Under the pieces are notes generated by a model. That model ran no database searches, was not told where the DNA came from, and saw nothing but the letters and a program-made list of their open reading frames with translations. The position numbers were made by a program, and so were the translations under genes. Below are positions 3,642 to 15,984 of a DNA stretch of 33,520 bases, in pieces. The stretch is taken from IMG/VR virus record IMGVR_UViG_3300025874_000003; one strand, 5' to 3'. Origin of the DNA: a virus. Each line of letters opens with the position of its first letter. The stretch's first letter is position 1.

Positions 3642-3717
3642 AGGTACATACGGTAGCAAAGTAGGCGCACCACCAAAGAAAGGTAAGAAAAAACCAATGA
3701 AGAAGCCTAAGAAATGA
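3628..3717 (+). CDS. 29-aa lysine-rich peptide (MPQGKGTYGSKVGAPPKKGKKKPMKKPKK)
   Basis: ATG at 3628 follows AGGAGAGA. Its TGA overlaps the holin ATG (ATGA). Too short for the ORF track. Confidence 0.4.
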   Translation: MPQGKGTYGSKVGAPPKKGKKKPMKKPKK

Positions 3718-4190
3718 ATTTTAAATCTATTAAGAGCTTAATCGGCGCTGTAGCTCCAGTTCTAGGTACGGCTTTGGGCAGCCCTCTAGGTGGCGCTGCT
3801 GCGTCTGCAATTGCATCTGCTTTAGGTTGTGGAAACGACACTAAAAGCATTGAGAAAGCCTTACAGAACGCCTCACCAGAACAATTGCTTGAAGTTAAGA
3901 AAGCTGAGTTAGATTTTGAAACTAAAATGGCGGAATTAGAAGTAGATATATTTGCTTTGGAGGCAGAAGATGTCAAAAATGCGAGACAGGCACACAAAGG
4001 CGATTGGACACCAAGAATCGTTGCGCTTGTGTCTCTTGTGGGCTTCGTTGGGTATATTTTCCTTGTTACTATCCAGCCACCTGATGCTAATAGCGACACA
4101 ATAGTAAGTTTAATACTGGGTTATATGGGCGGTGTAGTATCTGCCATAACTTCTTTTTACTTCGGTGCGAGTCATAAATCAGATGGGTAA
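3714..4190 (+). CDS. Holin (GTA/3TM-holin-like)
   Basis: Gly/Ala-rich amphipathic N-terminus, a central charged coiled segment, and C-terminal TM segments (IVALVSLVGFVGYIFLV, IVSLILGYMGGVVSAITSFYF). Lies immediately upstream of the endolysin and overlaps it. Confidence 0.6.
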   Translation: MNFKSIKSLIGAVAPVLGTALGSPLGGAAASAIASALGCGNDTKSIEKALQNASPEQLLEVKKAELDFETKMAELEVDIFALEAEDVKNARQAHKGDWTPRIVALVSLVGFVGYIFLVTIQPPDANSDTIVSLILGYMGGVVSAITSFYFGASHKSDG

Positions 4191-4533
4191 GTTTAAATAC
4201 TTTAAAAGAGAAGAGTTTGATTGCCAAGAGACTGGCGAGAATGATATGCAGGATGAATTTATCCATGCGTTAGACGAGCTACGTGAGGCGGCAGGTTTTG
4301 CTTTTACAATTACTTCTGGATATAGAAGTGAAAAGCACTCTATTGAAGCTAAAAAGGCTGCTGGCGGTATGCACACTAAAGGCATTGCCGCAGATATAAG
4401 AGTTAGCAGTGGGGCGCAAAGATTCTTGCTGGCGAAACTAGCGTTCGAGTTAGGGTTTAGTGGTATTGGTATCGCCAAGACTTTTGTACACGTAGATATA
4501 CGCAAGACTGTCCCCGTGCTTTGGACTTATTAG
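4183..4533 (+). CDS. Endolysin, peptidase M15 (D-Ala-D-Ala carboxypeptidase / L-Ala-D-Glu peptidase fold)
   Basis: ATG 4183 overlaps the holin stop by 8 nt, whereas the ORF track starts at GTG 4165. Zn-ligand pattern HTKGIAADI ... HVD and the SGYRS motif are present. Confidence 0.8.
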   Translation: MGKFKYFKREEFDCQETGENDMQDEFIHALDELREAAGFAFTITSGYRSEKHSIEAKKAAGGMHTKGIAADIRVSSGAQRFLLAKLAFELGFSGIGIAKTFVHVDIRKTVPVLWTY

Positions 4534-4739: not shown

Positions 4740-5184
4740 CTTTTAATCTCCCGAACTCACCCAAAGTTTCAAGAACAACGCCTTGCTGCGCTGCAAATGC
4801 CTGTACGAACTCCATAAACATAAACATTTCCCCTTTATCGTATTCACTTGTACTTTTTAACACTAAGGCGCTAATCCCTGTGTCATGGTTTGTTACTCTT
4901 TTACACAGCCATCTGTAGTCTGCATTGTTATAAGCGGCTTGCTTTAAGATTATCTTGGCGTCATCAACATCCGACTTTTGAATACTTTTAAGCGGAACTT
5001 TAAACCTCCAAGCAGCGTACTCTCTAACCCAGATGTGGAGTAGGGCGCTTTGCGATAATGACCTGTTCGACATGCCTGTTACCTTAACCTTAAACGCTTC
5101 TTTTTTATCTATCAACTCACTAATAGACCTCAGAAAATCATCTACAGAGTCGGGCTTTGCTGGTATAACTATAAATTCACGCAC
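4723..5184 (-). CDS. ninB: NinB/Orf-family recombination mediator
   Basis: GTG start with AAGGTGAG upstream. RSLSQSALLHIW and TSEYDKGEMFMFMEFVQAFAAQQGV align by eye with lambda NinB (RSLDQNRKLW ... TSRMRVGEFAELLELIQAFG). Confidence 0.65.
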   Translation of the reverse strand: MREFIVIPAKPDSVDDFLRSISELIDKKEAFKVKVTGMSNRSLSQSALLHIWVREYAAWRFKVPLKSIQKSDVDDAKIILKQAAYNNADYRWLCKRVTNHDTGISALVLKSTSEYDKGEMFMFMEFVQAFAAQQGVVLETLGEFGRLKDETNV

Positions 5185-5545
5185 CTTTTCTCACCTTTTT
5201 TACTTTACGTTTGTAATGCCTTTCGTTTAACTTTCTAAAGACGTAATCGCCAACATACAGGTCGTAACAGATATTCTTTTTGTTATCGGCCATCCTACAT
5301 ATATCAACTTCATCAAATCCGTTGCGTAGTGCAAACATGGCCAGCGTGCCAAAAGCGTTTACTCTATGAGTGTTGTTTATATTGTCTCGCACTTCAGACA
5401 GTCTTAATTTATTACCAAACATTGAAGTCTGTATATCCCACGGGTTAAACCTTTCGCTTACGCCCCCGTTATCAACTCCTAACTCGGTTATTGTGCTTGT
5501 TTGACTACCACTTGCTGTTGTTGTCGCTTGAGCGGTGTACTGCAT
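5177..5545 (-). CDS. Hypothetical protein
   Basis: The ORF track starts at TTG 5557. ATG 5545 (MQYTAQ...) has GGAGG 5 nt upstream and is preferred. Confidence 0.65.
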   Translation of the reverse strand: MQYTAQATTTASGSQTSTITELGVDNGGVSERFNPWDIQTSMFGNKLRLSEVRDNINNTHRVNAFGTLAMFALRNGFDEVDICRMADNKKNICYDLYVGDYVFRKLNERHYKRKVKKVRKGA

Positions 5546-5556
5546 AAAATCCTCCA

Positions 5557-5577
5557 ATTTTGGGAGGTATTACATTA
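5557..5577 (+). repeat. Solitary copy of the 21-bp motif (ATTTTGGGAGGTATTACATTA)
   Basis: Matches the tandem copies at 11672-11738 at 19 of 21 positions. It is in + orientation inside the minus-strand operon. Confidence 0.85.
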
Positions 5578-5612
5578 GATTTTTAACCTAATGCAATACC
5601 CATGCACACTTC

Positions 5613-6020: not shown

Positions 6021-6332
6021 TTATCTTCGGTTTTTTCTAGTTGGTGCTAATGGCTTGTCCTGATCAGGTAAAAACCACTGAGCGACCTTAACTTTTGTGT
6101 CCCATCTATTTCTAACGCCGACCATTCGAGTAACAACTGGCAAGCCCATACTTCTTAACTCTGATATTCTTGCTGTAGGATTCATAATCCCATGATCATT
6201 TAGGCAAGACATTCTTGTAAGCATCTCACCATTTTCTAGCGCTACTTGCAGCCTTTCACACTGGCTTAACTTTTCTTCTTCTTCTCTGCGAGCATCAGCT
6301 TCTTCGTTTATTTGTTTAAGCTCTTGAAACAT
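6021..6332 (-). CDS. Winged-helix DNA-binding protein
   Basis: LTRMSCLNDHGIMNPTARISELRSMGLPV resembles the wHTH pattern in which an ARI.eLR..G motif follows the recognition helix. TAATG coupling to the upstream gene. Confidence 0.55.
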   Translation of the reverse strand: MFQELKQINEEADARREEEEKLSQCERLQVALENGEMLTRMSCLNDHGIMNPTARISELRSMGLPVVTRMVGVRNRWDTKVKVAQWFLPDQDKPLAPTRKNRR

Positions 6333-6841: not shown

Positions 6842-6919
6842 TTATAAAGTAAATAGTTGATATAACGCGTAACAGAATAGTACCACAACAAAAAACTCAA
6901 AGCACTGCATTTTATCCAT
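6842..6919 (-). CDS. 25-aa hydrophobic peptide (MDKMQCFEFFVVVLFCYALYQLFTL)
   Basis: Hand translation. Its ATG overlaps the stop of the upstream 50-aa gene. Weak evidence only. Confidence 0.25.
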   Translation of the reverse strand: MDKMQCFEFFVVVLFCYALYQLFTL

Positions 6920-7064
6920 TTTTATTTATCCTATTCTCTACTTTCTTGGCGTACTTCTTAACGTCAATGTGGGCTTCCTTTGGCAGATAGATACCTCTAA
7001 CCTCTGCAAGACCCTGCTCTTTTTTCTTGGCTCTAAACTTACGAACATACTCAGTACTACTCAT
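6912..7064 (-). CDS. 50-aa ribbon-helix-helix-like protein, paralogue of 10717-10908
   Basis: Hand translation MSSTEYVRKFRAKKKEQGLAEVRGIYLPKEAHIDVKKYAKKVENRINKNG. TAATG junction with the upstream gene. Shares the E-[VI]-R-G-[IV]-[YF]-x-x-K-E-[AS]-H core with the 63-aa protein at 10717-10908. Confidence 0.6.
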   Translation of the reverse strand: MSSTEYVRKFRAKKKEQGLAEVRGIYLPKEAHIDVKKYAKKVENRINKNG

Positions 7065-10109: not shown

Positions 10110-10763
10110 TTAAAAACCGTCTGCCCATGAGTTATCTGTGAGTCTGTTGAAGACTTTTTCTTTCTTCTCTGGCCTGTTAGCTGCAAAGCGTACTGCATTG
10201 ACGTACCAAGTTCTCCAAGCGGCTGCATAGTTGTGAACATTAGTCTTTTTAGCTTGGTGGTGAGAGGTAAATAGCATCCACTGCTCTTCCATATCGAACG
10301 CTGCACCCTTCTTTAACCAGTAAGCCGTTGCAGCACCAGCTAACTCTTCAGGTATCTCTTTATCTAATAATTGTTTATTACTTTGTTTATTACATTGTTT
10401 ATTCCTCTGCAATGGTTGCAGGGGTAGGGGTGCAACTGTTGCAGGGGTGGGGTCTAATGGTTGCAGGGGTGCAATGGTTGCAGGGGTCATAGGAACGGTA
10501 GCTTTATAGCGATTTGTAGTACCGCTATGCCCGCCATCGCTTCTATCGACCTCAAGCCACTGCGCCGCCTCTAACTTCTTAATATGCGCCCTTACTGTTT
10601 GCTCGGACAAACCTGTTTCACGGCTTATACGGCCAACAGAGGGCCAGCAGAGGTCACGCTTCATGTTCATATAGGTTCTGAGGTAACTTGCTACATATTT
10701 AGAGTTAGACGGTAGTTCAGTCTTCCAAATCAATTCTAGCCAGTCGATTACTGATGTGCTCAT
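10110..10763 (-). CDS. Replication initiator (lambda O-like organisation: N-terminal wHTH, iteron-encoding linker, C-terminal domain)
   Basis: N-terminal NSKYVASYLRTYMN...WPSVGRISRETGLSEQTVRAHIKKLEAAQWLEV is a winged HTH typical of phage replication proteins. The central part is encoded by DNA repeats (see 10371-10487). Confidence 0.65.
   Translation of the reverse strand: MSTSVIDWLELIWKTELPSNSKYVASYLRTYMNMKRDLCWPSVGRISRETGLSEQTVRAHIKKLEAAQWLEVDRSDGGHSGTTNRYKATVPMTPATIAPLQPLDPTPATVAPLPLQPLQRNKQCNKQSNKQLLDKEIPEELAGAATAYWLKKGAAFDMEEQWMLFTSHHQAKKTNVHNYAAAWRTWYVNAVRFAANRPEKKEKVFNRLTDNSWADGF
10371..10487. repeat. Candidate origin of replication inside the initiator gene
   Basis: Three copies of TTGTTTATTAC at 12-bp spacing (10371, 10383, 10395). 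Four copies of (T/G)GTTGCAGGGGT ending at 10425, 10448, 10470 and 10487. Confidence 0.6.
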
Positions 10764-10908
10764 GTGTTATCCCTTTTTCTGTCAATCTTAAAATATGCTT
10801 TATGTGTGCTTTGATCTCTTTATGAGATTCTTTTTTTACAAAAACGCCTCTTATTTCACCGCGCCCTAGTGCTTTTTGCTTGTCTCGCCAATTTTTATAC
10901 TCACTCAT
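10717..10908 (-). CDS. RHH-like small protein, paralogue of 6912-7064
   Basis: 63-aa ORF. KQKALGRGEIRGVFVKKESHKEIKAHIKHI aligns with the 50-aa protein at 6912-7064. The 3' end overlaps the initiator gene by 47 nt. Confidence 0.6.
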   Translation of the reverse strand: MSEYKNWRDKQKALGRGEIRGVFVKKESHKEIKAHIKHILRLTEKGITHEHISNRLARIDLED

Positions 10909-11336
10909 GCGTAATCCTCAAATTCTAAATACTCGGTTTCACCATTATTGCGCTTTTCACTCAAAATGGCGTGCTGCTTCTTATAATGCTTGGCTATGTG
11001 GCCAGCTTTATTATCTTTAAACATCTGTTTTGCCATGTTTATGTCGTTTTTACGCTCAGTAAGAATCTCATAACGACCAGAACCTAGCGTTTTCTCTGCC
11101 CAGAGCTGAAATTCGTGTGGATTAGCTCCCATTTTTTGATGACAGCCGTAGCAGTGTGCAAAGGCATTGTCACCGTGCCACCTGACTGACTTATTTGCGC
11201 GACCGTGATAATGAGAGCAATGCAAGCCAGTCGAACTGCGGTCATACGATTTAAAGCAGACCTCGCAGGTGTAATCTGTACGCTCGCGCACGCATTTACT
11301 GAACCAATTGTCTGCTGGGTCACGTTTAATCCCCAT
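10905..11336 (-). CDS. ninG: NinG/Rap-like structure-specific (HNH-type) recombination endonuclease
   Basis: FSKCVRERTDYTCEVC...LHCSHYHGRANKSVRWHGDNAFAHCYGCHQKMGANP parallels lambda Rap (FIRERDRDLPCISCG...DAGHY...[22 protein letters not shown]). Confidence 0.6.
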   Translation of the reverse strand: MGIKRDPADNWFSKCVRERTDYTCEVCFKSYDRSSTGLHCSHYHGRANKSVRWHGDNAFAHCYGCHQKMGANPHEFQLWAEKTLGSGRYEILTERKNDINMAKQMFKDNKAGHIAKHYKKQHAILSEKRNNGETEYLEFEDYA

Positions 11337-11526
11337 TTTTAGCCTCGTTTCTGTCGTCTAACTGCTTCTGGACAACACAACCGAGGATAACTATTTCAAA
11401 TAAATCTCTGCGCTTAGAGAACCAACGTATGAGTGTTTCACTGCTAACATCTGTCATGTTTGACACTTGCTTGAGCGTTCTGAAGCCATAAGACTTTGCA
11501 TATTGTGACGGTGTAGTGAATTGCAT
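11326..11526 (-). CDS. Cro-like HTH regulator, first gene of the leftward arm
   Basis: 66 aa. LKQVSNMTDVSSETLIRWF is an HTH. It lies directly next to the divergent control region. Confidence 0.55.
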   Translation of the reverse strand: MQFTTPSQYAKSYGFRTLKQVSNMTDVSSETLIRWFSKRRDLFEIVILGCVVQKQLDDRNEAKNGD

Positions 11527-11554
11527 ATTGATCTCCGTAGTTATAATGTCAACG

Positions 11555-11584
11555 ATTATATATATAAAGTGCGCGTATTAGCAA
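11555..11584 (-). promoter_or_regulatory. Candidate leftward sigma70 promoter (TTGCTA - 16 to 18 nt - TATAAT/TATATA)
   Basis: On the minus strand, TTGCTA (11584-11579) and TATAAT (11560-11555) lie about 30 nt upstream of ATG 11526. Confidence 0.35.
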
Positions 11585-11671
11585 ATATATTTAGTGGATT
11601 TTAATAAATCTTTTTATCAACTAGATTTATTTTATTTTTTCATACCACTTTTTTAAAAAGTTGTTTTCAAA

Positions 11672-11740
11672 ATTTTGGGAGGTATTTCATTGAAATTTTG
11701 GGAGGTATTCTCTTGGAATTTTGGGAGGTATTTCATTGGA
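11672..11740 (+). repeat. Three tandem copies of the 21-bp motif ATTTTGGGAGGTATT(T/C)(C/T)(A/C)TTG at exact 23-bp phase
   Basis: Copies start at 11672, 11695 and 11718. Copies 1 and 3 are identical. An AT-rich tract lies immediately to the left. Confidence 0.9.
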
Positions 11741-11772
11741 TTTGCTGACGGGAATCGGATTTTTTGTATTTT

Positions 11773-11810
11773 CACTGGGTAAACGTACAGTACTAAGTAA
11801 ATATACAGTA
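11773..11810. promoter_or_regulatory. Two degenerate, overlapping SOS-box-like sites
   Basis: CACTGGGTAAACGTACAGTA (11773-11792, CTGG-N8-ACAG) and TACTAAGTAAATATACAGTA (11791-11810, CTAA-N8-ACAG) share 2 nt. Confidence 0.4.
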
Positions 11811-11827
11811 CTTTTTTTGATCTTAAA

Positions 11828-11847
11828 CACTGTATATATATACAGTA
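11828..11847. promoter_or_regulatory. Consensus LexA operator (SOS box)
   Basis: CACTGTATATATATACAGTA matches TACTG(TA)5CAGTA at 19 of 20 positions. It covers the spacer and -10 of TTGATC (11817-11822) - 16 nt - TATACA (11839-11844). Confidence 0.75.
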
Positions 11848-11997
11848 CTTTTTTAAACCATAAAAACCCTTTTTTTTACCCGTATAAATAGAAGTAAGAA
11901 CAAAAGCCGCGCTTTATGTTTAAAGACTATAGCGGCCAGTCGTGCGCATTGATATAAGCCCCATTTTAAATATATATACATAATCTAAGGAAAAGGG

Positions 11998-12025
11998 TTG
12001 ATAATTTAAATTATTGCCCTATAAT
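11998..12025 (+). promoter_or_regulatory. Rightward sigma70 promoter TTGATA - 16 nt - TATAAT
   Basis: TTGATA at 11998-12003 and TATAAT at 12020-12025, 45 nt upstream of ATG 12071. Confidence 0.6.
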
Positions 12026-12070
12026 TCCACACAAGTCGCGAATAACGCGCAATTAAAAAGGGTGAACAAT

Positions 12071-12283
12071 ATGAAATTCATTAAACCAATAGACTTATGG
12101 ACTCACGGCGAAGCTGTTCTAAGCGGCCAGATTAAATTACAACGCGGGCAATGGGTGAAGTGCGGCTCGCAATTGTCGCGTTTTGTAGGCGTAAAAGACA
12201 AGCGGTCTTTATGGGTTGCGCATTCACAAGGCAATAAGGCCGACACTAGGAAGCGCTTTATTGACTTATGCGAGGCCTTCTAA
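12071..12283 (+). CDS. Hypothetical protein, first gene of the rightward ORFan operon
   Basis: ATG 12071 follows AAAAAGGGTGA. The ORF-track start TTG 12014 lies inside the promoter. Confidence 0.65.
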   Translation: MKFIKPIDLWTHGEAVLSGQIKLQRGQWVKCGSQLSRFVGVKDKRSLWVAHSQGNKADTRKRFIDLCEAF

Positions 12284-13912: not shown

Positions 13913-13967
13913 AACCCCTTATTTTTGGAATCTATTACATCCACACCTATACAAGAACACACAACAG

Positions 13968-13992
13968 CCCACCTTAATACGTGGGTTTTTTT
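13968..13992 (+). terminator. Rho-independent terminator ending the ORFan operon
   Basis: CCCAC (13968-13972), loop CTTAATAC, GTGGG (13981-13985), then a run of 7 T. Confidence 0.6.
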
Positions 13993-14207
13993 ATGCCTTA
14001 GATATACTCTAAAACCCTAAATCATTTAGATTATATATTTGGCGGCCTCCTATAAGTCAATACCATTTAGTGCGCGTCTATTGCGTTCTAAGCAACGCCC
14101 CCATATACTGACCCCATTGCATTGATCGATGCCATTGCGTCCAGTATGCGACCGCATATAAAGTCTGGCGGGTATGCTGGATAATGAAGAGGGGGGGGTA
14201 GGGCGGA

Positions 14208-14234
14208 TTGATTCTCAAAGACGGCGCGTATAAT
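14208..14234 (+). promoter_or_regulatory. Candidate promoter for the structural operon (TTGATT - 15 nt - TATAAT)
   Basis: TTGATT at 14208-14213 and TATAAT at 14229-14234, 32 nt upstream of the terS ATG. The spacer is short. Confidence 0.35.
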
Positions 14235-14265
14235 ACACCCCATAACTTTTTAGCGGATAAATCGA

Positions 14266-14628: not shown

Positions 14629-14700
14629 AAAAAATTTCTCCCCTACGGGGGGTATACCAAATCTCTCAAGAATTGCGAAATCAGTAAATGGCTTTGTAAT

Positions 14701-14744
14701 TTTTTGGGAGGTTAATCATTAAGATTTTGGGAGCTTATTCATTG
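14701..14744 (+). repeat. Two diverged tandem copies of the 21-bp motif, 23-bp phase, abutting the terL start codon
   Basis: TTTTTGGGAGGTTAATCATTA (14701-14721) and ATTTTGGGAGCTTATTCATTG (14724-14744). The TTTGGGAG cores lie at 14703 and 14726. Confidence 0.8.
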
Positions 14745-14745
14745 A

Positions 14746-15984
14746 ATGGCTAAATTAACGCCGACCAAGCCGCAATTTGATTATATCAATACAGAGGCTA
14801 AATTCCCTGCGCTAGTTGCAGGATTTGGTGCTGGCAAGACCGAAGCAGCCGTACAGCGGTGCATTATCGGTAAATTAAGGAACCCCACTACAAATAGGGG
14901 CTTCTACGAACCTACCTACGATTTGATTCGTATGATTGCGTGGCCGCGTTTCGAGGAAATCCTCACCGAGCTGCAAATACCCTATAAACTACACAAGTCG
15001 CCTCTAAACTACATAGACCTTGGCGCTTACGGTCAGATAATCTTCCGCTCAATGGAGAATATCAACCGAATCATCGGTTATGCCCATGCCGATGCCGATA
15101 TTGACGAACTCGATACCTTAAAAGAATCCGATGCTGCTGCTGCGTTCCGAGCTATTATGGCTCGTAACCGTGAAGTCAAACCTAATGGTGAACCCAACAC
15201 AATTGGCGTAACCACCACACCTGAAGGCTTTAAATTCGTCTACAAGACGTGGAAAAAGAATCCTCAGAAAGGCTTTGAACTGATACAAGCGCCAACAGCG
15301 TCTAACCCGCATCTTCCCTCGGACTATGTGGAAAACTTAAAGGCTATTTACCCTAATAACCTGCTCTCAGCATATTTGAACGGCGAGTTCGTCAACTTAA
15401 CCCAAGGAACTGTCTATAACGGCTATAACCGTGACAAAAACCAGAGCGATGCAACGATTAATCGCTTTGACTTCCTTATGGTCGGTATGGATTTCAACGT
15501 AACGGCAATGTCGGCGGTAGTCTTCGTGCAACGTAACGGTATATACCATGCAGTCAAAGAATTGACGGGTATCTACGATACGCCAACCATGATCCATACA
15601 CTGAAGACTAAATTCCCTAATCACAACATTGCGGTGTACCCAGATGCGTCTGGCGCGTCAAGAAAGACCGTGAATGCAAGTATATCCGATATATCCCTGT
15701 TAGAAACGGCAGGATTTGAGTGTAGAGCACCTAAGAAAAACCCTTTTATCAAAGATCGAGTCATGGCCGCTAATGCCGCCTTTGAATCAAGCCAAGTATT
15801 GATAAATTCCGATGAATGTCCTGAACTTTCCAGTAGTTTAGAGCAATTAACCTACGATAATAACGGCGTACCCGACAAAACCTCTGGTTTAGATCATTTA
15901 ATAGACGCTGCGACCTATCCTATTGCCCACGAACTGCCAATTATCAAACCAATAGCGGCAGTGCCGTTTAAATTTGCGATTTAA
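14746..15984 (+). CDS. terL: Terminase large subunit
   Basis: Walker A VAGFGAGKTEA near the N-terminus. 412 aa, positioned directly before the portal gene. Confidence 0.85.
   Translation: MAKLTPTKPQFDYINTEAKFPALVAGFGAGKTEAAVQRCIIGKLRNPTTNRGFYEPTYDLIRMIAWPRFEEILTELQIPYKLHKSPLNYIDLGAYGQIIFRSMENINRIIGYAHADADIDELDTLKESDAAAAFRAIMARNREVKPNGEPNTIGVTTTPEGFKFVYKTWKKNPQKGFELIQAPTASNPHLPSDYVENLKAIYPNNLLSAYLNGEFVNLTQGTVYNGYNRDKNQSDATINRFDFLMVGMDFNVTAMSAVVFVQRNGIYHAVKELTGIYDTPTMIHTLKTKFPNHNIAVYPDASGASRKTVNASISDISLLETAGFECRAPKKNPFIKDRVMAANAAFESSQVLINSDECPELSSSLEQLTYDNNGVPDKTSGLDHLIDAATYPIAHELPIIKPIAAVPFKFAI

Follow-up and report, generated by a model that had tools for sequence, protein, structure and literature searches.

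A 23-bp repeat associated with translation starts and its gene-less tandem array in the control region of an uncultured marine siphophage

Results

Genome organization and copies of the repeat

The stretch of DNA examined here, called the window throughout, is the whole 33,520-nucleotide IMG/VR virus record IMGVR_UViG_3300025874_000003, and the element in question is a directly repeated 23-bp unit, three copies of which stand in tandem in the control region of this phage. The window appears to be an entire siphophage genome, about 33.5 kb long and organized in two divergent arms. The leftward arm, running from 11526 to 4530, encodes a 66-aa helix-turn-helix (HTH) protein, a NinG-like protein, an O-like initiator, Erf, a winged-helix protein (6021-6332), SSB and NinB. 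The rightward arm starts at 12071 with small accessory open reading frames (ORFs), continues with a likely small terminase gene (terS), terL (Terminase_6N/6C) and portal, capsid and tail genes, and past the wrap-around carries genes for an exonuclease, a kinase and an endolysin. The array is located in the divergent control region, between the near-consensus promoters P_L and P_R (Table 1). The phages discussed here are uncultured marine siphophages, and the closest cultured relatives of their genes infect Vibrio and enterobacteria.

A first-pass annotation, made from the letters alone, had described a 21-bp motif in three tandem copies with further copies at two distant loci. A pattern search recovered this motif, ATTTTGGGAGGTATTTCATTG, exactly at 11672 and 11718 and with three mismatches at 11695, and among the distant copies those at 14724 (three mismatches) and 5557 (two mismatches), every one of them on the + strand. 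No match was obtained in 100 dinucleotide-preserving shuffles of the window. The 23-bp period is equally well founded, as Tandem Repeats Finder reported the array at 11671-11740 with a period of 23, 3.0 copies and a score of 117, the highest score of any tandem repeat in the window. The copy proposed at 14701 holds only in part: it is placed exactly one period upstream of that at 14724, but it is weak, lies beyond the limit of three mismatches and was found solely through the core TTTGGGAG and a position weight matrix, with a score of 12.5 compared to 25-41 for the other copies. The repeat is non-palindromic and conserved in a single orientation; in agreement with the annotation, the weight matrix gave no - strand match, either in the window or in any of the related loci. 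There are three unit-bearing loci per genome. The consensus of the unit reads T-R-R-A-A-T-T-T-T-G-G-G-A-G-[G/C]-T-W-T-T-T-Y-N-T-T-R. In the window the TTG of the third array unit opens an ORF of 51 codons, which is not kept in relatives.

Table 1. Units of the repeat and neighboring features in the window
Feature	Position	Strand	Remarks
Structures in leftward mRNA at the orphan unit	5551-5599	-	Hairpin 5551-5567 and a 12-bp inverted repeat
Orphan unit	5556-5578	+	AATTTTGGGAGGTATTACATTAG; antisense to the leftward operon there
66-aa HTH protein	11326-11526	-	First gene of the leftward operon
P_L, leftward early promoter	11555-11584	-	TTGCTA-18-TATAAT; CGCG operator-like sequence in the spacer
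AT-rich tract	11585-11669		Between P_L and the array; GC about 0.2
Array unit 1	11670-11692	+	AAATTTTGGGAGGTATTTCATTG; search, Tandem Repeats Finder, alignment with units of relatives
Array unit 2	11693-11715	+	AAATTTTGGGAGGTATTCTCTTG; search, Tandem Repeats Finder, alignment
Array unit 3	11716-11738	+	GAATTTTGGGAGGTATTTCATTG; search
LexA-type boxes (three)	11773-11792, 11791-11810, 11828-11847		Downstream of the array
P_R, rightward early promoter	11998-12025	+	TTGATA-16-TATAAT
terL doublet, upstream unit	14698-14721	+	AATTTTTTGGGAGGTTAATCATTA; degenerate, without a start codon
terL doublet, downstream unit	14722-14744	+	AGATTTTGGGAGCTTATTCATTG; adjoins the terL ATG at 14746

The unit as a translation initiation region

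Relatives for comparison, all of them uncultured, were gathered from IMG/VR and metagenomes by motif scans and a terL search. In these relatives the unit is very probably a complete translation initiation region, composed of an A/U-rich AAUUUU segment, a GGGAG(G) Shine-Dalgarno sequence, a U-rich spacer of 7-8 nt and a UUG start codon. In L128, L131, L133 and L135 it is situated between terS and terL, and its TTG falls on the terL ATG of other lineages in the alignment; the reading frame that follows (TTG GCT AGA TTA AAC) gives MARLNPTKPQF as the start of terL. The gene for a T4-type lysozyme likewise starts at the TTG of a unit in L049, L206-L210, L226 and L231, and the Pfam match of this protein (PF00959, E = 8e-13) begins at profile position 3. 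In L207-L210, L226 and L231 the lysozyme is preceded by a doublet with a spacing of 22 bp, right behind the stop codon of an upstream gene for a 158-aa membrane protein. Other arrangements were found at terL: in L124-type lineages only the left half of the unit remains, as a plain Shine-Dalgarno sequence in GGGAGCTTT-ATG, and in the window, L136 and L137 the unit is followed by a single A and then by the terL ATG. As single copies or doublets the unit thus serves the start of terL in the window, and in relatives those of terL, of the T4-type lysozyme and possibly of terS.

Pairing of the G-type unit with the 3' tail of 16S rRNA is predicted at -11.7 kcal/mol, on a par with the strongest Shine-Dalgarno interaction tested among the genes of this phage, while for the C-type unit, the one at terL, -6.8 kcal/mol is predicted. 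The remaining genes of the window possess common AAGGAG/GGAG sites and ATG starts. The earlier suggestion that the GGAGG core of the unit might have a role at the RNA level is therefore substantiated by the working translation initiation regions of terL and lysozyme genes in relatives.

Two further observations concern the genes that carry the unit. In the window the Shine-Dalgarno sequence stands 12 nt from the terL ATG, which is unusually distant, and the TTG of the unit starts a mini-ORF of three codons (TTG AAT GGC TAA, 14741-14752) overlapping that ATG; the same layout is repeated in L136 and L137, with TAG in place of TAA. Translation of terL may proceed by termination-reinitiation. The endolysin module (3714-4533 in the window) has been swapped in relation to L049 and L207: the window has a peptidase-type endolysin with a GTG start that overlaps the upstream gene for the 158-aa membrane protein, and L049 and L207 have the T4-type lysozyme after one or two units.

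Conservation of the array

The array-bearing loci examined were 18 in number: the window, 16 related loci with three or four units (L005, L045/L124, L078, L103, L117/L137, L118, L119, L128, L049, L272, L275, L296, L305, L308, L319 and L329) and L286. The first-pass annotation had staked its motif on conservation in close relatives, and the array is indeed present in all of these loci with a nearly invariant core. It consists of three or four units in 17 of the 18, L286 showing two units before the end of its contig, and its position is constant, between divergent early promoters and pointing to the late-gene arm. In an alignment of ten lineages it stands out as a block of invariant columns, the DNA around it being about 50% identical. 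The 11-bp core AATTTTGGGAG is essentially invariant across lineages, and conservation extends to AATTTT and to the T-rich right half, i.e. beyond the bases that pair with rRNA. Most lineages space their units by 23 bp and some by 22-24 bp, and insertions between units of 9 bp (L103), 32 bp (L118) and 1 bp (L308) are tolerated. The near-identical L128 and L049 have three and four units, respectively, and decayed units flank the array on its right side. The preservation of at least three intact, near-invariant units in 17 of 18 loci amid flanks of about 50% identity therefore shows that the array is under selection.

A sister clade, with terL 75-79% identical, showed none of these elements. Its terS stop codon overlaps the terL start; the weight matrix gave no matches, with no unit at terL and no array in the 3-7 kb available upstream, and no alternative repeat was found in the equivalent place. 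Early genes of the sister clade are co-linear with the late genes, in one direction, from which it follows that the clade of the window differs by an inversion of the early module. Since neither array nor unit was found in the sister clade, the array and the unit-type starts appeared together, in the clade with the inverted early module. In the sister-clade loci L146, L147 and L152 the genes for Erf, the winged-helix protein, SSB, NinB and a ribbon-helix-helix (RHH)-like protein stand on the terS/terL strand, directly upstream.

Comparison of the flanks has to be read against the roughly 55-63% at which unrelated AT-rich 150-mers align. The left flank of L329 aligns with that of the window at 79% and the right flank at 59%, while in relation to L124 and L272 the same locus shows 59-63% on the left and 74% on the right. 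L124 and L119 show 95% on the left and 65% on the right, and L128 and L305 87% and 60%, respectively. Homology breaks at the array, which, as judged from these flanks, serves as the crossover point for the exchange of left and right control modules.

The orphan unit

The remaining locus is a single orphan unit, nested in 56 bp of inserted DNA that separate the stop codon of SSB from the leftward gene after it. The orphan is limited to the sub-lineage of the window (L199-L205 and L329), and the same junction is compact in L206-L210. The array units of L286 have the same right half, GTATTACATTA, and the orphan is thus a genuine unit that was transposed or recombined. On the leftward mRNA the complement of the unit, CCUCC, is predicted to form a hairpin with GGAGG and so to sequester the Shine-Dalgarno sequence of the gene at 5177-5545. 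The 12-bp inverted repeat, 5567-5578 with 5588-5599, has variant pairs that are G.U-compatible only in RNA of the - strand. It seems that the orphan unit was recruited, in antisense, as an attenuator of translation.

Candidate readers of the unit

The gene for the 66-aa HTH protein is the only identified DNA-binding gene that tracks the distribution of the array: it is present in every array-bearing locus with a recovered left flank and absent from the sister clade. It is, however, syntenic with the array, so that this co-occurrence is not independent evidence. Identity of the protein drops to 43-55% between lineages and its predicted recognition helix varies (SSETLIRW, STVTLRNW, NRDTLVIW, PYSTLICW), while the 11-bp core is unchanged. 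A search with the protein returned one near-identical match only, and profile searches gave weak TetR/MerR-type HTH matches. Its AlphaFold model is a three-helix HTH with an additional long helix (pLDDT 75), for which a fold search found no significant neighbour in the PDB. A core that stays invariant while phage proteins diverge to 43-55% points to host-invariant machinery, and the reader of the unit is most likely such machinery and not a phage protein. A second phage DNA-binding factor, which the first-pass annotation took to be implied, is on these grounds not required. Of the binders it had named, the two RHH paralogues (6912-7064 and 10717-10908) are also present in the sister clade, where no array was found. 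The N-termini of these paralogues read ...EVRGIYLPKE... and ...EIRGVFVKKE..., and each of them retrieves the same set of loci.

Searches for other known signals were negative. Rfam gave no match at the gathering score in the whole window and only chance-level matches at permissive E-values in 11450-12150, and no tRNA or tmRNA was found. Four 8-mer matches to a complementary partner of the unit occur in the window compared to 5.9 expected, none of them beyond chance. Inspection by eye revealed no convincing fit to the consensus of IHF, Fis, sigma-54, sigma-32, DnaA, CRP, ARG-box or Fur-box. A G-quadruplex built from the spaced GGG runs was rejected, as its loops would be 20 nt long.

Surroundings of the array

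The AT-rich tract noticed beside the array is real (GC 18-22% over 11550-11700), and a second leftward promoter-like site lies inside it (11657-11629). The proximity to SOS boxes is also as described, the first LexA-type box beginning 34 bp past the array end. One of the three boxes is perfect (CTGT-N8-ACAG) and two are degenerate, and they overlap promoter-like hexamers (TTGATC ... TACAGT). The same layout is found in L078, L119, L118 and L305, while L128, L049 and L308 have GTCA-N6-TGAC palindromes instead, which indicates that the operator module is swappable. Scans of the window proteins against Pfam and PHROGs detected no integrase and no CI-type repressor, and no attachment site was found in the window.

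The CGCG operator-like sequence in the P_L spacer (11568-11580, ATACGCGCAC on the - strand) has a counterpart in a CGCG-AATAA-CGCG inverted repeat immediately past P_R (12036-12054). Most lineages keep this sequence, but L137, in which the 66-aa HTH protein has diverged furthest, lacks it both inside P_L and beside P_R. Its probable binder is the 66-aa HTH protein or a Cro-like protein. A block CGTATAAAT(A) is present in all lineages about 150-250 bp downstream of the array, without a recognisable -35 element. In the window it is found at 11882-11890, matching TATAAATA, and may be a further rightward promoter.

The early-right operon is closed by a strong rightward terminator (13966-13987), which is followed by about 280 bp of non-coding DNA with a G8 run and a GCGCG-TATAAT sequence just ahead of the putative terS. 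Many related contigs start inside this stretch, 440-670 bp upstream of terL, which suggests that 13966-14265 contains the physical genome end (cos) and a late promoter. After terS a CUCCCC-UAC-GGGGGG hairpin with an A8 run upstream (14630-14652) forms a better intrinsic terminator leftward than rightward; in relatives a C(UUCG)G-type hairpin is joined directly to the T-run of the unit.

No useful cultured close relative was found by megablast and blastn of the region against phage records; identities to cultured phages do not exceed 50% for terL and 45% for the NinG-like gene. A Vibrio breoganii phage was rejected as a relative, being of a different, lambdoid type. A scan of species-representative genomes for two cores 23 bp apart yielded only unrelated repeats in diverse taxa, e.g. 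CCCATTTTGGGAG, with no prophage and no indication of the host. The same pattern also matched L116, L110, L113 and L114, GC-rich or cyanobacterial contigs with, e.g., CTCCAAAATTTTGGGA palindromes and CCCATTTTGGGAG tandem repeats; these repeats are unrelated to the 23-bp unit family.

Discussion

Proposed function of the cassette and its array

The reading that we propose, to which we give a probability of about 0.45, is that the unit is a start-associated cassette, and that the array is an amplified, gene-less form of it which is read by the host and doubles as a recombination linker. Single copies or doublets of the cassette are the initiation regions of late genes in the rightward arm, and this establishes what the cassette is. 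The triple array would be this cassette multiplied at the head of that arm with no gene attached, in a control region which probably arose through inversion of the early module of this clade with respect to the late genes. Through its anti-Shine-Dalgarno sequence the 30S subunit would dock on array RNA, and RNA polymerase possibly also engages the junctions between units, which resemble a -10 element followed by GGGA. The array could launch a rightward leader RNA, add ribosome-docking sites to it, or both; its transcription and effect are what we infer. If an upstream unit gives the transcription start and the next one the ribosome-binding site, the doublets before terL and the lysozyme gene would be explained. 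Conserved between swappable flanks, the array also serves as the point of crossover in module exchange. Of the first-pass reading as a whole, the hint at the RNA level stands, owing to the start sites of relatives, while the interpretation as iterons or an RHH operator is unlikely.

Several results weigh against this proposal. The orphan unit is antisense to local transcription and ill-suited to a simple start-site role. A dedicated promoter scan found no promoter inside the array, no conserved sigma-70 promoter is present upstream of it, and the junction hexamers of the window, TGAAAT and TGGAAT, lack the critical A at position 2. There is no conserved ORF after the array: those derived by hand in seven lineages have 2-51 codons. 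They are mutually unrelated and broken by indels between close relatives, and a gene at this place was rejected. No conserved terminator follows either, as folding of eight lineages gave no common hairpin with a U-run and z-scores of about 0. The near-consensus P_R lies 260 bp downstream, so that an extra promoter is not obviously needed. Finally, the contiguous 11-bp conservation is tighter in the array than at gene starts and exceeds what ribosome binding needs.

The last point would be expected of a DNA operator array, in which the tandem units between the divergent promoters are the sites of a sequence-specific protein (a host regulator or the 66-aa HTH protein) and in which the copies at terS/terL, membrane protein/lysozyme and SSB/next gene are elongation roadblocks or silencers in the manner of mycobacteriophage L5 stoperators. 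Such an array should look much like the present one, with its 23-bp direct repeats in tandem next to an AT-rich tract and with P_L and P_R on either side; it needs no flanking promoter, which is consistent with the swapping of flanks, and the orientation of the orphan copy is irrelevant for a DNA binder. The HTH protein, with its predicted three-helix fold, is found together with the array and not in the sister clade. Precedents also exist, both for asymmetric dispersed operators (PMC9283540) and for direct-repeat arrays bound by small HTH proteins (PMC7498355). We nevertheless consider an operator unlikely. The site would by chance have to contain a sense-strand Shine-Dalgarno sequence and a correctly spaced start codon used by two or three genes, and the gene-associated sites are found within operons and not at promoters. 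An invariant core is difficult to reconcile with a variable predicted recognition helix, and divergence of the HTH protein tracks another operator, the CGCG-containing one in P_L that is lost in L137. The Pfam and PHROGs scans gave no repressor of the CI or gp71 kind, the fold search for the HTH protein had no significant match, and the array tolerates the inter-unit insertions of L103, L118 and L308. The array could alternatively consist of tandem rightward promoters only, extended -10 or activator-dependent with the core at about -30, the likeness to a Shine-Dalgarno sequence being secondary. A hexamer and a 17-bp spacer (6 + 17) add up to the period of 23, and the junction TTG-R-AATTTT-GGGAGG resembles a TGn-extended -10-like element with -11A and -7T, then a GGGA-type discriminator. 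Junctions read as TTGAAA (-35-like) and TAGAAT, TAAAAT or TATAGT (-10-like); junction pairs are sigma-70-like in all eight lineages scanned, as weak periodic candidates with scores of 6.6 in the window, 8.1 in L119 and L124 and up to 11.0 in L103. A TAGATT or TAAGAT sequence comes 8 nt past the core both after the orphan and after the upstream members of doublets, and the array stands in the control region upstream of LexA or repressor operators. Promoters alone are nonetheless improbable: a G occupies the critical position 2 of the -10 in more than half of the internal junctions, both window junctions included, the dedicated scan was negative, single units coincide with start codons, a position from which a promoter would be of no use to the gene, and the real promoters of this phage are near consensus.

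Other explanations move the function to the RNA or to recombination. Array RNA could titrate a factor that controls translation of terL and lysozyme, be it a translational repressor, a CsrA-like GGA binder or a small RNA, or a leftward RNA complementary to the initiation region could pair with the start sites. Within genomes the variable right halves are indeed similar, with TTCATTG common to the array of the window and its terL unit and TCTATT common to the L119 array and the lysozyme unit of the same contig, yet gene conversion explains this similarity equally well. The orphan demonstrates that an inverted copy can sequester a Shine-Dalgarno sequence in cis, and terminase and endolysin are timing-critical targets. 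Against such a network, which we regard as doubtful, no promoter or terminator bounds the RNA in question, Rfam has no match for it, the window has no complementary sequence elsewhere beyond chance, and no RNA-binding protein was identified. Only slightly less doubtful is the variant in which the array is a mimic, offering three or four decoy terL/endolysin start sites from the control region and competing for, or sequestering, a factor that gates translation of terminase and endolysin; 30S subunits, a CsrA-like protein, a phage protein and an antisense RNA are all conceivable in this role. If true, such an array would be a post-transcriptional timer for packaging and lysis, and the orphan would extend this sense/antisense logic to an early gene. 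We know of no ribosome-binding-site decoy array in phages. A recombination linker or neutral amplification with no regulatory role would provide short homology for module shuffling by Erf, SSB and NinB. This accords with homology that stops exactly at the array in several lineage pairs, with units flanking swapped modules (lysozyme replaces the peptidase-type endolysin, and early-right accessory genes are hypervariable), with the copy number variation between L128 and L049 and with the decayed units beside the array. Selection for evolvability alone is weak, however, and the intact units kept in 17 of 18 loci between poorly conserved flanks favour direct selection, so that a linker with no other role is also improbable. 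Least credible, and in our view very improbable, is an iteron-type replication origin, which the first-pass annotation had put forward, or an incompatibility or partition locus. In form the array is iteron-like, three 23-bp direct repeats beside an AT-rich block. The O-like gene, however, already contains four palindromic iterons of its own (TGCAAyNGTTGCAGGGGT, 10403-10487, spacing 22-23 bp), which are distinct from the 23-bp unit as that annotation had rightly noted, and adjoining them three AT-rich 12-mers, ATTGTTTATTAC (10370-10409). These make up a lambda-like origin inside the initiator gene (10370-10487). Pfam and PHROGs scans of the window proteins found no second Rep, ParA or ParB, and the units serve elsewhere as start sites of terL and lysozyme, so they are not confined to origin or control loci as initiator-binding sites.

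The proposal of a start-associated cassette, if correct, has practical advantages for further work. Copies are few, the genes under their control, terminase and endolysin, set the timing of packaging and lysis, and the gene-less array can be deleted or moved. The array also marks the exact crossover point of control-module exchange, a short conserved signal that shapes phage mosaicism. Should it be only a conserved initiation cassette amplified by slippage, the finding would be modest.

Comparison with known systems

Iterons of R6K, RK2, P1 and the lambda origin are direct repeats with a period of about 22-23 bp beside an AT-rich region. The array resembles them in period and position, and differs in that iterons are not known to double as gene starts. 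STAB-SD stabilisers (Bacillus cryIIIA) and ribosome standby sites are leader Shine-Dalgarno sequences which bind the 30S subunit without starting a gene; they are single sites in a defined 5' UTR, unlike the three or four tandem full cassettes described here, and our literature search found no report of tandem Shine-Dalgarno sequences in phages. The PeSL elements of T4-type phages, reportedly described by Arbiol, Comeau and Krisch in 2010 as mobile regulatory cassettes with an early promoter and a stem-loop, are comparable as short conserved expression signals at module boundaries and as crossover points for mosaic shuffling, but they are neither ribosome-binding cassettes nor tandem arrays.

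Among DNA-binding systems, the Cox/Apl arrays of P2 and 186 (PMC3936717, PMC7498355) also combine a small HTH protein from the first early gene with a direct-repeat array in the switch region and a second set of sites elsewhere in the genome. Their sites are about one helical turn apart (PMC7498355), in contrast to 23 bp here with insertions of 9 and 32 bp tolerated; moreover, no integrase or attachment site was found in the window, and the variation of the HTH protein does not match an invariant core. The stoperators of L5 and cluster A phages (PMC9283540, PMC6550527) are likewise asymmetric sites in short intergenic gaps within operons and show an orientation bias. They are, however, DNA sites of a known repressor, number dozens, are not ribosome-binding sites and form no tandem arrays, whereas here the Pfam and PHROGs scans found no cognate repressor and only three loci per genome carry units.

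The closest analogue of the unit, an analogue and not a homologue, is the start-associated sequence (SAS) of cluster K mycobacteriophages, GGGATAGGAGCCC, present in 11-19 copies upstream of non-structural genes; its function was unknown when it was described (PMC3203893, Pope et al. 2011) and it was still functionally untested in 2025 (PMC12699233). Both elements are asymmetric, include a Shine-Dalgarno core and lie a few nucleotides from start codons, here in the terL and lysozyme copies; both keep one orientation, with a rare opposite copy that is not tied to a gene start, and both are clade-specific and conserved past the bases that pair with 16S rRNA. They differ in sequence (AATTTTGGGAGS... 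versus GGGATAGGAGCCC) and in host phylum, the gene-associated copies here number one to three and belong to late genes (terL, lysozyme), and the present unit holds its start codon, TTG, inside. The array units stand without a gene, unlike the terL and lysozyme copies, and neither of the two SAS reports (PMC3203893, PMC12699233) describes a gene-less tandem array in a control region. Start-associated repeats are known from one group of mycobacteriophages and have stayed unexplained for 14 years; an independent, unrelated example would make them a general phenomenon and give a tractable test bed for their study.

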